Source: a virus (lineage: Duplodnaviria; Heunggongvirae; Uroviricota; Caudoviricetes). Taken from it: a stretch of 33,787 bases of DNA. Below the pieces are notes generated by a model that worked only from the letters and a program-made list of their open reading frames with translations, ran no database searches and was not told where the DNA came from. A program made the translations under genes and the position numbers. Of this stretch, positions 2,419-29,865 are shown in pieces (position 1 is the stretch's first letter; each line of letters starts with the position of its first letter). The DNA is taken from positions 1 to 33,787 of the IMG/VR virus record IMGVR_UViG_2724679074_000004; one strand, 5' to 3'.

Positions 2419-2826
2419 ATGCCATTCCACCCAACTGGTGAGGCATCAAGGATGTACAGCAAATACGACGAGGCGAAGTTTCACTTGAGACTTCCGCATG
2501 AACTCCACGCGAAAATTAAACAGCGCGCGAAGATGAATAACAGGTCACTGAACTCAGAGATAATTGCAGCGATTGAAGAATCATTGGCTAAACAAAGCTC
2601 TGCATCAGTTTACATTGACGATGCAGAGCGTATGCAGAACAACAATCTGATATGGTTAAGAAAATTGTCTTTGATACGCTCAAAGAGCTATATAAAAAAG
2701 ACAGCAGTTAACCATCAGTTACGGAGGATTTATGCAAAGAGATACGCTGAATATTGCGTTCTACATATTTGGTTTTTGCACGTTCCTGGTGTTTGCGAAG
2801 CTATTCTGACAACGCATCAGACTTAG
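2419..2826 (+). CDS. mnt: Mnt-like ribbon-helix-helix repressor (immI remnant); true start possibly the internal ATG at ~2452; C-terminal ~40 aa extension overlaps gp16 3' end
   Basis: Segment FHLRLPHELHAKIKQRAKMNNRSLNSEIIAAIEESL resembles the RHH N-terminus of P22 Mnt/Arc; divergent orientation between gene 16 and gene 9 homologs matches P22 mnt. Confidence 0.55.
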   Translation: MPFHPTGEASRMYSKYDEAKFHLRLPHELHAKIKQRAKMNNRSLNSEIIAAIEESLAKQSSASVYIDDAERMQNNNLIWLRKLSLIRSKSYIKKTAVNHQLRRIYAKRYAEYCVLHIWFLHVPGVCEAILTTHQT

Positions 2827-4798
2827 CCCCCTGAGTCAGGGCGTTAATGGCCTTTTGTGCCTGCTGCATGGCTTTCTCAAACGCTGTTGATCCGCGTGGG
2901 GTGTTTGCCATTCGGAGCATTGCATTTCTGAATGCCTCGCTCTCATAGGCGCGAGTAAGAAGTCCGTAGCTTACTGCTGCGCCAGTTGTTGCAGGGTTCA
3001 TTGCCGTCCCATACCCAATAATGAACGGGATGGTTTGCTGACCTGTGGGCGTTGTTACTGCCGCTTTTGCAGCCTGCTGCGTGGATTGAAGGTAGTTTTT
3101 CAATCCTTTCAGATAAGCAGCATCCTGCCCCTTAAATGTTATTCCAGTCTGGTTTTGCAGGATGTTAAGCTGTCGAAGAAACTGGTCAGGGGAACCACCT
3201 GATTTCTCCATCGCCTTTCCAATGATGCCATTGCGCATTTGCGCCCTACCAACACGACCAACTGAGTTATACAGAGTCTTAATTTCAGATTTGTTCTTGC
3301 TGAATAGCATGTTGTTGACAACTTCCGGCGTCAGGTCGCCTTTCATGAGAACATTCTTCAGCCTGGTATTCTTTAGTTTCGCCGCTTCGTCAGCGTAGAC
3401 GGCATTGGCCTGCTGATATTTACGGAGAGTATCGTTGCCAAGATTCTGACCAATGGCACCATTGATATCGTCGGTCATTGCCTTGTAAACGCGCTGAATG
3501 GCAGCATCGGAACGGTTTGGTAACACTGGTCGCTCACCCTTCACATCCATTCTGAACTGGCTGCGCAGATCGCTTAATTGCTTCAAATCCAGATTTACCG
3601 GACCATCAGGACCAGCATTGCGAACAAGCTCATCACGATAGGACTGAAGTTTTGAAATAGTCTCGTTATCAGCAACCTTACCGAGCTTCTGAAGGTTAGA
3701 TATTTCTGTATCAATCTGCTGAACTGCTCGTGCAGGCTGAATGTTTACTCCTGCCATAGCATTCTGAACCTGCTCCAGTCGATTACCGGCAGCACGACGA
3801 ATTCCTGATGTTTTCGCTTTAAGGCTGTCAATAACAACCGCTGGGTCATACTCACCGAATTTATCGGCAAATCTCTGCACCAACTGGCTTCTCGCTTCCT
3901 GTTGCGTTGCTCTCATTCCGCTTGTTCCAGCCAGAGGGATATTTTCTGCTGTAGTCTGCGCCATTTTTCCGACGCGGGAAGTAGGCTGTAACAGGTCTGT
4001 GGTGTGCAGAGGAACGCCTTCACGCTCTGCAAACCTGATAGCCTGCTGCGCTTCAGGCGCAATAGCACCACGAACGCCACGATAAGCAGCACCTAATCCA
4101 CGTCCGGCAGCGTTAATAGCACCGCCAGCCAGCACACCAACGCCTAAATCGGTGGCGAGTGCTTCCGCATCATCTTTCGCACTATTTGCAGCAAGTGATC
4201 CAACTGCGTTTTCAGCGAGAAGGCGAGTTGCCCCCTGAGCAATTCGACCAGCAAGTGTTGGTGCCTGTGCTGCCGCTCTCTCAACGCCAGCAGGAGTGAG
4301 GTAAGGCAATGCTTCAGCAAATATCCTTCCCTCTGTCGTTTGTGGAGTCAGCGCGCCTTGCTGAAGGCCAAAGTCCTGCTCTAATCCCTGCGTTGTTACT
4401 CGTGGAGCTGGTTGATATGTACCATCGCCAATACCGAGTTTACCGCCAGCCCATGCCGCCGCGCTTGTTACAGCATCGGCAACTGATGCAGGTATGTTTG
4501 CCACATTCACGCCAGCCTGCACCAGTCCGCGACCAGTCTCTTTTACTGCTTCGCCAAGATCAGACATAAATCCACTTTGCTGTGGTTGTTGCTGTGCTAC
4601 TGGCTGTTGTGTCTCCACTGGCTGCACAGATGGCAATGGATAGGCAGCATAGAAAGCTTGCTTAGCCTGCTCTGCATTTTCTCCGGCTTGCGGGGCCACG
4701 ACTTCATTGAAGTATTGCTCCTGAGCCTGCGCTTTTTGTTCTGGTGCTAACGCCTGATACTGTGGAGAGGCGATAACATCTTTCCATGCTTTAGCCAT
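2801..4798 (-). CDS. Ejection (DNA-injection) protein, P22 gp16-like
   Basis: 665 aa ORF in the gp7-gp20-gp16 position and order; Gly/Ala/Gln-rich; size close to P22 gp16 (609 aa). Confidence 0.75.
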   Translation of the reverse strand: MAKAWKDVIASPQYQALAPEQKAQAQEQYFNEVVAPQAGENAEQAKQAFYAAYPLPSVQPVETQQPVAQQQPQQSGFMSDLGEAVKETGRGLVQAGVNVANIPASVADAVTSAAAWAGGKLGIGDGTYQPAPRVTTQGLEQDFGLQQGALTPQTTEGRIFAEALPYLTPAGVERAAAQAPTLAGRIAQGATRLLAENAVGSLAANSAKDDAEALATDLGVGVLAGGAINAAGRGLGAAYRGVRGAIAPEAQQAIRFAEREGVPLHTTDLLQPTSRVGKMAQTTAENIPLAGTSGMRATQQEARSQLVQRFADKFGEYDPAVVIDSLKAKTSGIRRAAGNRLEQVQNAMAGVNIQPARAVQQIDTEISNLQKLGKVADNETISKLQSYRDELVRNAGPDGPVNLDLKQLSDLRSQFRMDVKGERPVLPNRSDAAIQRVYKAMTDDINGAIGQNLGNDTLRKYQQANAVYADEAAKLKNTRLKNVLMKGDLTPEVVNNMLFSKNKSEIKTLYNSVGRVGRAQMRNGIIGKAMEKSGGSPDQFLRQLNILQNQTGITFKGQDAAYLKGLKNYLQSTQQAAKAAVTTPTGQQTIPFIIGYGTAMNPATTGAAVSYGLLTRAYESEAFRNAMLRMANTPRGSTAFEKAMQQAQKAINALTQGAKSDALSE

Positions 4799-24742: not shown

Positions 24743-25033
24743 TCAGAATTCCATCTGGATTTGTTCAGAACGCTCGGTTGCCGCCGGGCGTTTTTTATTG
24801 GTGAGAATCGAAGCAACTTGTCGTGCCAATCGAGCCATATCGTCGTCGACGACGCCCCATTCAAGAACAGCAAGCAGCATTGAGAACTTTGGAATCCAAT
24901 CCCTCTTCCACCTGCTGATCTGCGACTTATCAACTCCCACAGCTTCCGCTGTCTTCTCAGTTCCAAGCATTGCGATTTTGTTAAGCAACGCACTCTCGAT
25001 TCGTAGAGCCTCGTTGCGTTTGTTTGCACGAAC
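24743..25033 (-). CDS. cII: CII transcriptional activator (lambda-type)
   Basis: MVRANKRNEALRIESALLNKIAMLGTEKTAEAVGVDKSQISRWKRDWIPKFSMLLAVLEWGVVDDDMARLARQVA.ILTNKKRPAATERSEQIQMEF is essentially lambda CII; ORF track extends upstream over nutR, but true start is MVRANK. Confidence 0.9.
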   Translation of the reverse strand, partial: VRANKRNEALRIESALLNKIAMLGTEKTAEAVGVDKSQISRWKRDWIPKFSMLLAVLEWGVVDDDMARLARQVASILTNKKRPAATERSEQIQMEF

Positions 25034-25094
25034 CATATGTAAGTATTTCCTTAACAAATAAGAAGTTATGCGCATCAACTTATGCGCGTTGTAT

Positions 25095-25138
25095 TCCCGC
25101 ATTTCGGCGGGAATGAGGACCATGACTGTTAAAGAGCG
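25095..25138 (-). promoter_or_regulatory. nutR: boxA (CGCTCTTTAA) and boxB hairpin (TCCCGC-CGAAAT-GCGGGA) between cro and cII
   Basis: Minus-strand sequence CGCTCTTTAACAGTCATGGTCCTCATTCCCGCCGAAATGCGGGAA; same boxB as the nutL copy upstream of N. Confidence 0.55.
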
Positions 25139-25145
25139 GTGTTAC

Positions 25146-25370
25146 TTATGCTGCCTGATTCGGTTTTGGAAACAGGTGTGGCAAATCGGGGCGAATTTCG
25201 TAAGCCTTGATCTGCCCTCCAGTGGCGTTAACGATGGCGGTAACTTTCTCTGGAGAGACCAACCCGCCTTTCAGCCATTTGTGTACTGCTGGCTGCGTTA
25301 CACCACACTTGTCGGCAAGGCGCTTTTGGCTACCGACAATTTTCAAGGCTCGTTGAATTACTAAATTCAT
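25146..25370 (-). CDS. cro: Cro-like HTH repressor (start probably at MNLVIQ..)
   Basis: Small HTH protein (..QKRLADKCGVTQPAVHKWLKG..) divergent from cI across an operator region; AGAGG 7 nt upstream of second ATG. Confidence 0.7.
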   Translation of the reverse strand: MNLVIQRALKIVGSQKRLADKCGVTQPAVHKWLKGGLVSPEKVTAIVNATGGQIKAYEIRPDLPHLFPKPNQAA

Positions 25371-25406
25371 GAGCATACCTCTTGTGGTCATTACTTATAA
25401 CCAAAG

Positions 25407-25469
25407 ATAACTCAAGTTATAAAAAATAGCAATAACCTTTGTTATTTTACTTTGGATAACCGTAGTTAT
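25407..25469. promoter_or_regulatory. OR operator region: three 14-bp palindromes with ATAAC/GTTAT half-sites, centre spacing 24-25 bp, between cro and cI (PR/PRM region)
   Basis: ATAACTCAAGTTAT (25407-25420), ATAACCTTTGTTAT (25432-25445), ATAACCGTAGTTAT (25456-25469) read directly. Confidence 0.6.
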
Positions 25470-25481
25470 AGATTTGTGGGT

Positions 25482-26189
25482 ATGAAAACATTCGCAGAAA
25501 GACTAAATGCAGCCATGAGCTCAGCAGGGGTATCACAATCACAGCTTGCTGACATGGTTGGAATATCTCAGCCAGCCATACAGAAGATGTCGTCCGGTAA
25601 AACAAACGGATCTCGCAAGATGGTTGAATTAGCCAATGCTTTAAAAGTGCGCCCTGAATGGCTTAGTTCTGGTATTGGTGAAATGAGGGATGGTGCACAT
25701 GAAGAACCATCCAATTTCCGTGAGTCATCTTTAAAAGCTGTGGTATGGGAAGACATTAAAAGAAACGATGACGAGTTTGTTGCGTTGCCTCTTCTTAACG
25801 TTTCGCTTTCAGCTGGAAGCGGTAGCTGCGAGCTAGAGGAATCATCGGAGTTCTCTTTGGTTTTCAGAAAGCACTATCTGAAAAAGATGGGAGTATCTGA
25901 AAGATCAGCCAAGCTAGTTAGGGTTGTAGGGCAAAGCATGGAACCAACGCTTCACGATGGCGATGTTGTTGGTGTTAACACGCAAGATACCACCATCAGA
26001 GATGGTAAAACCTACGCTATTTGCCAGTCTGATTTGTTACGAGTAAAAACATTAATCGCCACCCCTACATCGGTGATAATCAGATCAATAAATCGCGAAG
26101 AGTACCCGGATGAAGTAATGGATAGAGATGAATTTCATGAAACCGTAAGGATTATTGGCAGAGTATTCTGGTCGTCTCATAGTTGGTAA
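25482..26189 (+). CDS. cI: CI-type prophage repressor (XRE HTH + S24 LexA-like autopeptidase domain)
   Basis: N-terminal HTH (SQSQLADMVGISQPAIQKMSSG), Ala-Gly cleavage motif (SLSAGSG), catalytic Ser in GQSMEPT and Lys in RVKTL; start taken at MKTFAERL (track uses an upstream TTG). Confidence 0.9.
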   Translation: MKTFAERLNAAMSSAGVSQSQLADMVGISQPAIQKMSSGKTNGSRKMVELANALKVRPEWLSSGIGEMRDGAHEEPSNFRESSLKAVVWEDIKRNDDEFVALPLLNVSLSAGSGSCELEESSEFSLVFRKHYLKKMGVSERSAKLVRVVGQSMEPTLHDGDVVGVNTQDTTIRDGKTYAICQSDLLRVKTLIATPTSVIIRSINREEYPDEVMDRDEFHETVRIIGRVFWSSHSW

Positions 26190-26229
26190 CCGATAATCAG
26201 AAGAAGACTTACGGAAGTGCGGAGGGATA

Positions 26230-26526
26230 ATGGAATTTCTGATAGTTTTTGTTGTTGTTTTGGTCATCATTCTTTTTGTTTTGCTAAGCATTAGTAAAAA
26301 GCTATCTCAAGTGATTGAACATAGCTCTAATCGCGCAAAAGAAGAAGAGCATCTAATTGATATAAAAGAGATTCTCTCTGATATAAAAATCACATTAGAT
26401 GAAATAAAATACACAACAGATCTAATTGAACAGTATAAAATACCAACCCCAAACGAGAGAAAAGCAATAGATCAATATCGTATTGACTTAGAAATCGACG
26501 AAATGCTAAGCAAAAGAAAAGACTAA
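26230..26526 (+). CDS. Hypothetical single-pass membrane protein encoded by an AT-rich moron in the rex/sieB position downstream of cI
   Basis: 98 aa: N-terminal TM helix (EFLIVFVVVLVIILFVLLSI) then charged helical region; GGAGGG RBS; visibly AT-rich codon usage; followed by intrinsic terminator. Confidence 0.6.
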   Translation: MEFLIVFVVVLVIILFVLLSISKKLSQVIEHSSNRAKEEEHLIDIKEILSDIKITLDEIKYTTDLIEQYKIPTPNERKAIDQYRIDLEIDEMLSKRKD

Positions 26527-26532
26527 AAACAC

Positions 26533-26560
26533 CCGGCCTCAGCGCCGGGTTTTCTTTTCC
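26533..26560 (+). terminator. Intrinsic terminator ending the cI-orf98 transcription unit
   Basis: CCCGGC-CTCAGC-GCCGGG hairpin followed by TTTTCTTTT. Confidence 0.6.
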
Positions 26561-26680
26561 TGCCGTTCACCACCCAATCACCCATCATCATCATAGACAA
26601 GCATCAAGCCAAAGGTAACACCTTCACCCCGCACGCAAGCCCTCAAACACCAATCAATCAGCAACATTTACAAAAATAAA

Positions 26681-26764
26681 ATACCTTTGTTATCCATCAC
26701 TTATAACTTATTTACCACAAAATATAAATTAGGTTATTGACCACACCTATAACCTAAGTTATCT
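26681..26764 (+). promoter_or_regulatory. OL/PL region: operator-like ATAAC/GTTAT palindromes and a candidate PL promoter (-35 TTGACC, -10 TATCTT) directed toward N
   Basis: ATACCTTTGTTAT, ATAAATTAGGTTAT and ATAACCTAAGTTAT share half-sites with the OR operators; TTGACC-17bp-TATCTT read directly. Confidence 0.5.
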
Positions 26765-26810
26765 TTAAGCCATCAGCAGGACGCTGGTAGCCAAACGGAA
26801 CAGATTGGCA

Positions 26811-26851
26811 GGCTCTTTAGCATTGATGGGATTGTCCCGCCGAAATGCGGG
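26811..26851 (+). promoter_or_regulatory. nutL: boxA-like GGCTCTTTAG and boxB hairpin CCCGC-CGAAAT-GCGGG upstream of N
   Basis: Same boxB sequence as nutR; located between PL and the N start. Confidence 0.5.
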
Positions 26852-26959
26852 AACCAAAGAGTAGTTGGCTTTGGGGTGACGTGAAGTGCAGCTGCACGAC
26901 GGCAACCGGAAGATAAGCACCCGGCGCGTCACCGCCAAAGTCAATCATCGGAGGTCAAC

Positions 26960-27232
26960 ATGACAGTAGTCATTACATATCTGGCTGACGATAACGCCAG
27001 AAATCGCCGCAGAGCACGCAGACAGGCTCAACGTGAGCAGGCAATGCAAGAACAGCGACTGGCGCGAAAAATTGCGCTAAAGCTCTCTAGTTGCGTCAGA
27101 GCAGACAAAGCAGCATCACTCGGAAGCCTTCGCTGCAAGAAGGCAGAAGAATGCAGTGGAAGTATTTGCCTGCCAAACGTAGCTCTTTACGCGGCAGGCT
27201 ACCGGAAATCAAAACAACTGACAGCCAGGTAA
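26960..27232 (+). CDS. N: N-type transcription antiterminator (P22 gene 24-like)
   Basis: Arginine-rich motif NARNRRRARRQAQREQ at N-terminus; C-terminus LPNVALYAAGYRKSKQLTAR matches remembered P22 gp24; preceded by nutL. Confidence 0.8.
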   Translation: MTVVITYLADDNARNRRRARRQAQREQAMQEQRLARKIALKLSSCVRADKAASLGSLRCKKAEECSGSICLPNVALYAAGYRKSKQLTAR

Positions 27233-27235
27233 GTG

Positions 27236-27460
27236 ATGAATCAGACATACATTCCATCATGCTTGAGAAATCTGCCAAAGCAGAAAGCAAAGCCCCGCAA
27301 GCAAGCCATAAAGGACGCTAAGGCAGAGGTTATTGATCAAGCAATACAATTGCTCAGGGAGGAGTTAAGAAGTGGCAAGCTCGAAGGAATGATGATGCCC
27401 TATCAGCGCGGATATCTATCGGCGATTAGTAAGTTGGAAGTATTGAAGAGTGAATTATGA
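27236..27460 (+). CDS. Hypothetical small basic protein (74 aa) immediately downstream of N
   Basis: ORF starting 1 codon after N stop; no recognizable family. Confidence 0.45.
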   Translation: MNQTYIPSCLRNLPKQKAKPRKQAIKDAKAEVIDQAIQLLREELRSGKLEGMMMPYQRGYLSAISKLEVLKSEL

Positions 27461-27493
27461 ACTATCTGGAATTTCCGGATGGTTCATTGTTTT

Positions 27494-27515
27494 GGCAGCA
27501 AACCACTTATTTGAG
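27494..27515 (+). repeat. 22-bp direct repeat copy 1 (GGCAGCAAACCACTTATTTGAG)
   Basis: Identical copy at 27617-27638; each sits ~10 nt upstream of an ATG. Confidence 0.75.
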
Positions 27516-27616
27516 GTGATATATGGAAGAACAAGCAAACAAGATTCTCGTAGAGCTACCGCAAGCCACGCAGTGAAATGGGTGTTACTTGTGTTGGTCG
27601 CCAGAAAATGAAATTA

Positions 27617-27648: not shown

Positions 27649-28272
27649 ATGTCATCAATCCGCTTAACTACGAGAATGAAAGAGGAAATCGCTCGTAACG
27701 CTTTAATTAAGTCTGGGGTTTTCACTGAACTTGAAGAAGTAACAAAGTTAAAGAACCAGCTTGCACTTGACGCCAGAGTTATTGCGTTTGGCGGTAAAAA
27801 GAAAACTGAGGAAGTGGATCGGTTATCATCCAAGTTAGCAGCTATAAGTGAAGAACTTGAGAAGATGGGATGTTCATTTTACTCATGCGATGTTCGTTCT
27901 ACTTCGATTTATCTGACTGTATCTGGAAGAAGGGTTGGCTGGCATTCATATGGGAAAGACGGCAACGGCGAAGATATATTGCTCCCTACTCCGACAAAAG
28001 ATAAATGCATGTTTGACGCAGAGCACGAAATAACAAAAAGGTTTGATGAAATCTGCTCATTACAACAAAAACTTGAAGCAAAGAAAAAGGATATCGAATC
28101 AAATGTATGGGCTGCTTTAAACTCAGTCACAACAGTTAAGCGACTTATTGAGGTTTGGCCTGAAAGCAAAGAGTTGCTACCAAAAGAAGCAGATAAAGCA
28201 AGTACAGCACTTCCTGCTTTACGGGTAGAAGATTTGAATAAGATGATTGGACTTCCTTCCGAGGCCGCATAG
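27649..28272 (+). CDS. Hypothetical protein (207 aa), unknown function, early-left accessory region
   Basis: Start at MSSIRLTTRMKEEIARN with GAGGAA RBS; soluble, coiled-coil-rich; no family recognized. Confidence 0.55.
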   Translation: MSSIRLTTRMKEEIARNALIKSGVFTELEEVTKLKNQLALDARVIAFGGKKKTEEVDRLSSKLAAISEELEKMGCSFYSCDVRSTSIYLTVSGRRVGWHSYGKDGNGEDILLPTPTKDKCMFDAEHEITKRFDEICSLQQKLEAKKKDIESNVWAALNSVTTVKRLIEVWPESKELLPKEADKASTALPALRVEDLNKMIGLPSEAA

Positions 28273-28762: not shown

Positions 28763-28896
28763 AAGCGCCTATAGCAGATTTACGAGTCTGCTATGTGAGC
28801 AATGTCGCTCGTAACTAAACAGGAGCCGACTTGTTCTGATTATTGGAAATCTTCTTTGCCCTCCGATGTGAGGGCAATTTTTTTGATGGAGGATAT

Positions 28897-29865
28897 ATGA
28901 GTGAAGTAACAGATTTAGTTGTTATTGAAAAAGCAAATGCAATGACTGTATTTCAGTCTGCCGACCAGATTGAAGAAATCCTTCAAAAGGTTGAACGTGA
29001 AGTTATGTCCTTTGTGCCTGATATCACAACGGCAAAGGGCAGAAAGGAGATCGCTTCTCTGGCGTATAAAGTTGCGCAGACGAAAACATATCTCGATGGT
29101 CTTGGCAAAGACCTTGTTGCTGAACTGAAGGAAATTCCAAAGCTAATTGATGCCAACCGCAAGACAGTGCGTGATCGCCTTGATGAGCTGAAAGCCAAGG
29201 CGCGCCAGCCTCTTACTGATTATGAGGAAGAACAGGCGCGGATTAAAGCCGAAGAAGAAGCTAAGGCAGCAGCTGAAGCTCTCGCAAAGCAAATTGAGTC
29301 TGACCATGAAATAGCGATTTTGATGGATCGCGAATTTGACCGCCAAAGAGAAGAGGCAAGACTCAAAGCGGAGCAGGAAAAGCGAGAGCATGAAGAACGC
29401 TTAAAAAGAGAAGCTGAAGAGAAAGCCAGAGCAGAAGCCGAAGCAAAGGCAAAAGCCGAAATTGAAGCAGCAGCAAGGCGAGAAGCAGAAGCTAAGGCCG
29501 CAGCGGAACGTGCAGAGCGTGAACGCATTGAAGCCGAGCAACGAGCACAGCGCAAAGCAAAAGAGGCAGCAGAACGAGCTGAAAGAGAAAAGCAGGCGGC
29601 AATTGAAGCAGAACGCCGAAAAGCACAGGAGGAGGCTGAACGAATCCGGCGCGAAGCTGAAGCAAAAGAGCAAGCCAGAATAGCAGAAGAAAAAAGAATC
29701 AAGGACGAAGAAGAGCGTAGAGCAAAGGATAAAGCTCACCGGAAAGAAGTAAATAACAAAATACTTGCTGACCTTATCAAGGTTGGTGCATCAGAAGATG
29801 TTGCTAAAAATATCATAACAGCCATCGTAAAAGGCGAAGTATTCGCAACAAAAATAACCTACTAA
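28897..29865 (+). CDS. Hypothetical protein with N-terminal globular domain and long E/A/K/R-rich low-complexity helical (TolA domain II-like) region
   Basis: 322 aa from MSEVTDLVVIEK (GGAGGA RBS); ~170 aa of AEAKAKAE/REAEAK repeats; C-terminal ~50 aa non-repetitive. Confidence 0.6.
   Translation: MSEVTDLVVIEKANAMTVFQSADQIEEILQKVEREVMSFVPDITTAKGRKEIASLAYKVAQTKTYLDGLGKDLVAELKEIPKLIDANRKTVRDRLDELKAKARQPLTDYEEEQARIKAEEEAKAAAEALAKQIESDHEIAILMDREFDRQREEARLKAEQEKREHEERLKREAEEKARAEAEAKAKAEIEAAARREAEAKAAAERAERERIEAEQRAQRKAKEAAERAEREKQAAIEAERRKAQEEAERIRREAEAKEQARIAEEKRIKDEEERRAKDKAHRKEVNNKILADLIKVGASEDVAKNIITAIVKGEVFATKITY

Follow-up and report, generated by a model that had tools for sequence, protein, structure and literature searches.

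Layout of the repressor–N interval

The window, i.e., the whole 33,787-nt stretch of DNA analysed here (IMG/VR record IMGVR_UViG_2724679074_000004), comes from a P22-like prophage (IME10/HK620-type) with a lambdoid early region. Its immunity region contains a small gene, ORF98, between the genes for the CI repressor and the N antiterminator, and the interval is composed of the following features.

24743–25123, minus strand: cII, beyond the divergent cro-type gene
25146–25391, minus strand: cro-type gene, divergent from cI (Pfam YdaS_toxin, E 1.5e-17; P22_Cro, E 1.3e-5; phrog_35)
25392–25481, no strand assigned: OR/PRM region with operator-like ATAAC...GTTAT sites (repeats D5, D11, D12, I2 and I16 are common to this and the OL region)
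25482–26189, plus strand: cI repressor with helix-turn-helix and S24 autopeptidase domains (Pfam Peptidase_S24, E 1.4e-17; HTH_3, E 7.9e-7; phrog_4, E 4.5e-53)
26192–26529, plus strand: exchangeable cassette of spacer, ribosome-binding site and ORF98, delimited by homology breakpoints against a related prophage (L007)
26230–26526, plus strand: ORF98, a 98-aa bitopic membrane protein of PHROG 18389 (profile match, dN/dS)
26236–26292, plus strand: codons of the single membrane helix (residues 3–21; mean Kyte-Doolittle hydropathy 3.67)
26356–26508, plus strand: codons of the conserved C-terminal helix-loop-helix (residues 43–93; alignments, AlphaFold2)
26531–26556, plus strand: intrinsic terminator closing the cI-ORF98 unit (-17.3 kcal/mol, z -2.64)
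26557–26671, plus strand: C-rich, G-poor, rut-like backbone tract (39% C, 9.6% G; identified by composition)
26675–26766, plus strand: OL/PL, with operator-like sites and a TTGACC-17-TATCTT promoter (26737–26765)
26960–27232, plus strand: N antiterminator gene (Pfam N_peptide, E 2e-16; phrog_271, E 1.1e-32)

The original prediction placed a 98-aa ORF with its own ribosome-binding site directly behind cI on the same strand, closed by an intrinsic terminator ahead of OL/PL and arranged as in lambda cI-rexA-rexB, and all of these elements were recovered. The gap between cI and ORF98 is 40 nt, and the ribosome-binding site is GGAGGG at 26221–26226, 3 nt ahead of the ATG. The terminator begins five bases past the ORF98 stop and consists of a stem of 7 pairs (6 G-C) followed by a T tract. 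Operator-like ATAAC/GTTAT half-sites form two clusters, at 25390–25475 and 26675–26766, on either side of the cI-ORF98 unit. The order of genes, operators and promoters thus mirrors that of cro, OR, cI-rexA-rexB, OL and N in the annotated lambda record.

The spacer between cI and ORF98 contains no hairpin or terminator (folding z +1.16), and the only promoter consensus match, inside cI, agrees at 9 of 12 positions, a level of agreement that occurs at chance frequency. ORF98 is probably co-transcribed with cI from PRM/PRE, and its product would therefore be made in the lysogen. Rfam returned no RNA family match in 25000–27600. An sRNA of the svsR type at the 3' end of cI was considered and rejected, as svsR belongs to another prophage and nothing comparable was detected in the same region.

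By its composition, the C-rich tract behind the terminator looks like a Rho-utilisation site that would serve as a backup to the intrinsic terminator ahead of OL/PL. Its presence in L007 as well assigns the tract to the backbone instead of the cassette. The tract lies on the same strand as the PRM transcript, carries the repeats CCAATCACCCATCATCAT and CCAATCAATCAGCAACAT, and includes the 78-nt window with the strongest excess of C over G in the entire 33.8 kb. The terminator hairpin (26531–26550) scores as a terminator on the minus strand as well. On the other side of the repressor, the cII ORF is given as 126 aa and its Phage_CII domain begins only at residue 30; an internal Met is probably the true cII start.

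An exchangeable cassette behind cI

Comparison with closely related repressor loci reveals that the slot behind cI can be filled in different ways. The CI protein of L007 (E. coli 98192) is 99% identical to that of the window and is followed by the same terminator/OL backbone, while homology between the two ends at 26191 and restarts at 26530. The slot of L007 (3891–4964) holds a gene for an SDH-type ClpP-like serine protease and a 56-aa ORF instead of ORF98, and the terminator is retained despite this different cassette. In L002 (phage SH2026Stx1), with a CI protein 94% identical, the slot holds a DUF3024 protein (3828–4169) and two further ORFs, and the DUF3024 protein matches the PADLOC defence candidate PDC-S43 (E 7e-42). 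ORF98 is dispensable and exchangeable, as the same cI occurs with other cargo.

Citrobacter prophages have only 26220–26553 in common with the window, comprising the ribosome-binding site, the ORF and the terminator. Because this common part begins just 10 nt ahead of the ATG, the cassette has no promoter of its own, and as a mobile unit without a promoter it depends on transcription of the repressor. In the same Citrobacter loci, a convergent ORF of 68–74 aa on the minus strand (L004, 6324–6530; L006, 6324–6548) ends right at the terminator; it has no Pfam or PADLOC match.

A moron, in the definition of Hendrix and Juhala, is an accessory gene inserted between conserved neighbours. The neighbours of ORF98 enclose different genes in related phages and its base composition is unlike that of its flanks; of the promoter and terminator belonging to such a unit, the terminator was found, and no promoter lies within the shared cassette. 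The interval between cI and N has been described as a mosaic hotspot, with rexAB in lambda and bstA in BTP1, the position of bstA is conserved across prophages, and RNA-seq places cI and bstA on one transcript (PMC8585504, PMC7067206).

Recurrence behind lysogeny repressors

All prophage-borne relatives that could be retrieved were taken into the comparison of lineages. In each of the eight lambdoid lineages (the window, L004, L006, L039, L040, L041/42, L048/49/52 and L051), the family gene starts 1–54 nt after an S24-type cI ends and precedes N. The eight CI proteins are 19–65% identical, with DNA-binding domains at most 54% identical, and the Cro proteins of the window, L004 and L006, which were the ones compared directly, are mutually unrelated. 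Divergent CI together with differing Cro indicates that these lineages belong to different immunity types. The family gene is usually better conserved than the adjacent cI, with 77% identity between the window and L004 compared to 22% for cI. A single base separates the cI stop from the start of the family gene in L041/42 (TAGTATG), a sequence arrangement that suggests translational coupling of the two genes. L051 encodes cIII as well.

A ninth lineage, represented by the P22-like contigs L055/L056, carries a family member 36 nt after a Mnt homolog (Pfam Arc, 1.7e-18; Repressor_Mnt, 5.7e-9). This Mnt-linked relative, which also matches PHROG 18389 (E 3.2e-7), is located between the tailspike and gp16-like DNA-transfer genes on the strand opposite to the late genes, at a site corresponding to mnt-orf59a-terminator and sieA in the annotated P22 record. 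Rather than being a one-off insertion, the family gene accompanies lysogeny repressors as a conserved neighbour in no fewer than nine phage lineages. It sits behind two unrelated repressors, CI and Mnt, whose counterparts in model phages carry exclusion genes nearby. The retention of the cI–N position across at least eight immunity types, plus the occurrence behind Mnt, makes ORF98 a better-supported candidate than a lone hypothetical ORF.

The window itself contains a Mnt/Arc-like ribbon-helix-helix ORF (FHLRLPHELHAKIKQRAKMNNRSLNSEI...) at 2419–2826 on the plus strand, in the position equivalent to immI, between a putative tailspike gene (36–2318, minus) and a gp16-like gene (2801–4798, minus). 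Neither a sieA-like gene nor a relative of ORF98 is present behind it.

Selection, family size and distribution

The ratio dN/dS is 0.15–0.18 when E. coli copies are compared with those of Citrobacter, and 0.07 for the more distant pair L041 and L042, and such values in the ORF98 frame indicate purifying selection on a real gene. The family is small. A word-indexed search returned 11 clusters from E. coli and Citrobacter, an exhaustive HMMER search of 1.84 billion representatives returned 14 representatives, all of 94–126 aa, and a profile search added a few further members, one of them from Pelagicoccus (a Verrucomicrobium). Full-length homologues reach down to 26% identity with the invariant residues kept.

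Among 5426 complete E. coli genomes, 102 (~2%) carry the ORF98 gene, and a tblastn search of 50,697 phage records found it in LC744178 only, a Stx1a-converting phage. Approximately 98 of the 106 E. coli genomes with a CI of at least 95% identity also carry ORF98. Within E. coli, the gene is mostly tied to one cI allele and is less patchy than many defence genes. Two variant alleles were observed in this species: P0010 (75 aa; 5 member sequences), in which the N-terminal membrane helix is replaced by unrelated sequence, and P0005, which lacks 5 residues at TDLIE. Both may be copies in decay, or they could be of use as natural controls. Literature queries by accession, PHROG id and slot found no publication on the protein, and the DefensePredictor supplementary tables do not contain its accession, which is weak evidence against a role in defence.

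Members at or below ~35% identity were found outside recognisable prophages. On two independent metagenome contigs, L046 (4854–5822) and L047, a relative lies 18 nt upstream of a gene for a PIN-domain protein (193 aa; Pfam PIN, E 3.7e-7), with an OsmC gene adjoining. This relative had been called as 73 aa, although the true ORF spans 122 aa with the membrane helix included. The relative and the PIN gene may form a two-gene module. Other settings of distant relatives are beside a SHOCT-domain gene, downstream of a sigma-54 activator, and in Pelagicoccus, and no partner gene is conserved across the non-prophage contexts examined. Given relatives in such contexts, the domain need not be phage-specific.

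Base composition

The ORF had been described as far more AT-rich than its flanks, which was taken as a sign of horizontal acquisition. The first half of this statement was confirmed by computation: the GC content of ORF98 is 30.3% (GC3 26.3%) compared to 47.2% for the window and 43.5% for cI, and no other 297-nt window across the 33.8 kb scores as low (mean 47.3%, sd 4.7). However, the family genes in lambdoid loci have 30–41% GC against 46–52% for the loci, which is true of every such locus, and the family genes in non-phage loci (46–62% GC) are also under the local mean. As AT-richness is family-wide, it does not prove a recent acquisition of the window copy, and this argument was dropped. 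The low GC results in part from the I/K/E/D/N-rich protein and is an old trait of the family. The recent arrival of the window copy is instead shown by the cassette breakpoints at 26191 and 26530, and it is on these that the designation as a moron stands.

Architecture of the protein

The predicted arrangement of one N-terminal membrane helix followed by a charged helical domain holds. Hydropathy analysis detected no second hydrophobic segment beyond residues 3–21, and the remainder of the protein is 42% charged (26–46% and net acidic across the family). In 18 family members, the N-terminal flank of the helix is never positive and the following 15 residues are mostly net positive, and these flank charges predict an N-terminus outside and a cytoplasmic C-terminus. 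AlphaFold2 yields an all-helical model (pLDDT 80–82) with helices at 45–68 and 74–97 and a break at 69–73. The C-terminal 50 residues are strongly conserved, with the motif I[KR]Y[TV]TD[LI]IE.YKLPxxxER.xID.IRID.EI, and Y69, P72, D81 and E88 are invariant in the family alignments, while the membrane helix and linker vary freely. This pattern would fit an anchor joined to a specific binding module.

Two other interpretations of the N-terminus were rejected. A lipoprotein exclusion factor of the Cor/Llp type is not compatible with the absence of Cys from ORF98, and hence of a lipobox. A Sec signal peptide is opposed by an N flank of ME (net -1), a hydrophobic run of 19 residues and the lack of a conserved cleavage site; the SIS motif of ORF98 becomes SIN in relatives.

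The expectation that the protein belongs to no recognised family was borne out, with one qualification. ORF98 matches PHROG 18389 over its full length (residues 1–98 versus profile 1–98 of 98; E 1.8e-61), and because this group has no functional annotation, membership names the family and explains nothing. Profile and structure searches were otherwise uninformative: no meaningful match was found among curated families (Pfam), PADLOC defence models, solved structures or predicted viral structures, and fold searches with the predicted structure gave no informative match. Sub-threshold Pfam matches were to DUF4446 and DUF948, which are families with a membrane helix plus coil. A PADLOC match to the Zorya component ZorB was dismissed, since it involved ZorB3 alone (E 0.01, 13 bits), covered residues 4–56 with the membrane helix, and had no ZorA-like neighbour.

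Relation to known exclusion and defence systems

The rexA-rexB genes of lambda occupy the same place in the immunity region as ORF98, behind cI and ahead of OL/PL and N. They are abortive infection genes co-transcribed with cI, and ORF98 is presumably expressed in the lysogen too. Both systems include a membrane component; however, rexA-rexB comprises two genes, for a sensor and a multi-pass channel, whereas ORF98 is one gene with one membrane helix. RexB is generally described with four membrane helices. Homology to either protein was rejected, with hhalign probabilities of 0.5% (RexA) and 0.8% (RexB) and no Pfam match.

The immI region of P22 (mnt-orf59a-sieA) resembles the L055/L056 locus, where the family member likewise directly follows a Mnt homolog on the strand opposite to the late genes, whereas ORF98 of the window is in the cI operon instead. 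SieA, which acts by injection block in P22, has three predicted membrane helices compared to one in ORF98. Homology was rejected here as well, at hhalign probabilities of 0.25% for SieA and 0.06% for Orf59a, and ORF98 has no Pfam or PHROG match to the SieA/SieB families.

BstA of the Salmonella prophage BTP1 is, like ORF98, encoded by a single gene immediately after cI in a P22-like prophage and followed by a Rho-independent terminator. BstA is a much larger soluble protein, and no homology of ORF98 to it was detected with Pfam or PADLOC. Published work describes BstA as localising to phage DNA replication sites. A different kind of likeness is offered by SNIPE, a membrane-bound nuclease active during genome injection and a single-pass protein with N-out/C-in topology (PMC13190303). 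SNIPE and, as predicted, ORF98 both have a short periplasmic N-terminus, one membrane helix and a cytoplasmic part at the inner membrane, and SNIPE provides a precedent for action at the injection site by a single-pass protein of this orientation. In contrast to SNIPE, which has DUF4041 and a GIY-YIG nuclease, ORF98 has only a helix-loop-helix of ~55 aa and no enzymatic domain. In classical injection blockers, the functional part usually faces the periplasm. The domain of ORF98 is predicted to lie in the cytoplasm, and a typical periplasmic block of injection seems less likely.

Possible functions of ORF98

An accessory gene in a repressor operon is of a well-known kind, while the ORF98 family itself is uncharacterised. 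ORF98 has no sequence homology to any defence or exclusion protein in PADLOC, Pfam, PHROG or hhalign comparisons, and its function is approached here by analogy of position. The most likely of the readings considered, to which we give about even odds, is that ORF98 is a lysogen-expressed gene that would protect against other phages from the cytoplasmic face of the inner membrane. This reading draws on where the gene lies, on the finding that a defence candidate can take its place, and on its repeated occurrence behind repressors of lysogeny. In such a mechanism, the promoter-less cassette of ribosome-binding site, ORF and terminator, which rides in the operon of a lysogeny repressor, would be transcribed from PRM/PRE and yield ORF98 in the lysogen. 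[quoted passage not shown] On the cytoplasmic side of the inner membrane, the tethered hairpin may then engage a conserved target, either part of the DNA-entry or early machinery of an incoming phage or an inner-membrane protein of the host on which such phages depend. A broader proposal, to which we lean somewhat less than to its opposite, is that this "YKLP-hairpin" constitutes a single-gene anti-phage system of Enterobacterales prophages, repeatedly wired to cI/Mnt operons and intercepting, from its membrane tether, a conserved step of superinfecting phages at the inner membrane, with older chromosomal relatives that pair the module with effectors, e.g., a PIN nuclease. If ORF98 excludes phages, it bears on the host range of therapeutic and Stx-converting phages.

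The strict adjacency to two unrelated repressor classes could also be explained if ORF98 tuned the phage's own lysis-lysogeny circuit through a membrane host factor (e.g., FtsH/HflKC or the SOS pathway) and did not act on other phages. The possible translational coupling to cI in L041/42 and the tight linkage to one cI allele in E. coli agree with such a role, and conservation of the cytoplasmic domain points to a host target that is itself conserved. In this role, ORF98 would be a new membrane-linked input to the switch. We nonetheless regard this tuning as unlikely, because the same cI works without ORF98 and with other cargo in L007 and L002, the eight unrelated cI types make a direct interaction with CI unlikely, and the carrier L051 also encodes cIII. 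Slightly less probable again is a lysogenic-conversion factor that alters host envelope physiology (stress tolerance, transport, homeostasis) with no role between phages. Its appeal lies in an architecture like that of PspB/YhcB, with an N-terminal membrane helix and then a charged cytoplasmic helix, in the sub-threshold matches to DUF4446 and DUF948, and in the relatives found in ordinary chromosomal contexts of distant bacteria. However, no family membership is reached at threshold, all Enterobacterales members examined are in prophage repressor operons, and the characterised occupants of the slot are anti-phage.

The small size and hydrophobic character of the protein, the relative 18 nt upstream of a PIN-domain gene in L046/L047 and the convergent 68–74-aa ORF after the terminator in the Citrobacter loci could be read as signs of a membrane toxin or an addiction (toxin-antitoxin-like) component that stabilises the prophage. 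We judge this improbable: the prophage loci share no conserved partner gene, a toxin in this position would be expressed constitutively along with cI, polar and charged residues are missing from the membrane helix, and the toxins Hok, TisB and Ldr differ from ORF98 with its 98 aa and large conserved soluble domain. We assign almost no probability to ORF98 being a remnant in decay or an ORF that arose by chance in an AT-rich spacer. It is short and of low complexity, several phage records leave it without annotation, and truncated alleles (P0010, P0005) exist; against this, dN/dS is 0.07–0.18, full-length homologues extend to 26% identity with invariant residues, and the ribosome-binding site and terminator are conserved. 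The conservation data rule out a chance ORF.

Other genes in the window

Two further genes were noted on the plus strand downstream of N. The gene at 27649–28272, in the PL operon, encodes an Nmad5 protein (nucleotide modification associated domain 5; Pfam E 7e-71) that also corresponds to phrog_1965, where its function is unassigned. At 28843–29865, a 340-aa ORF contains a long central low-complexity region rich in E, A, K and R (AEAKAKAE-type), and its local AT skew reaches up to 0.76.
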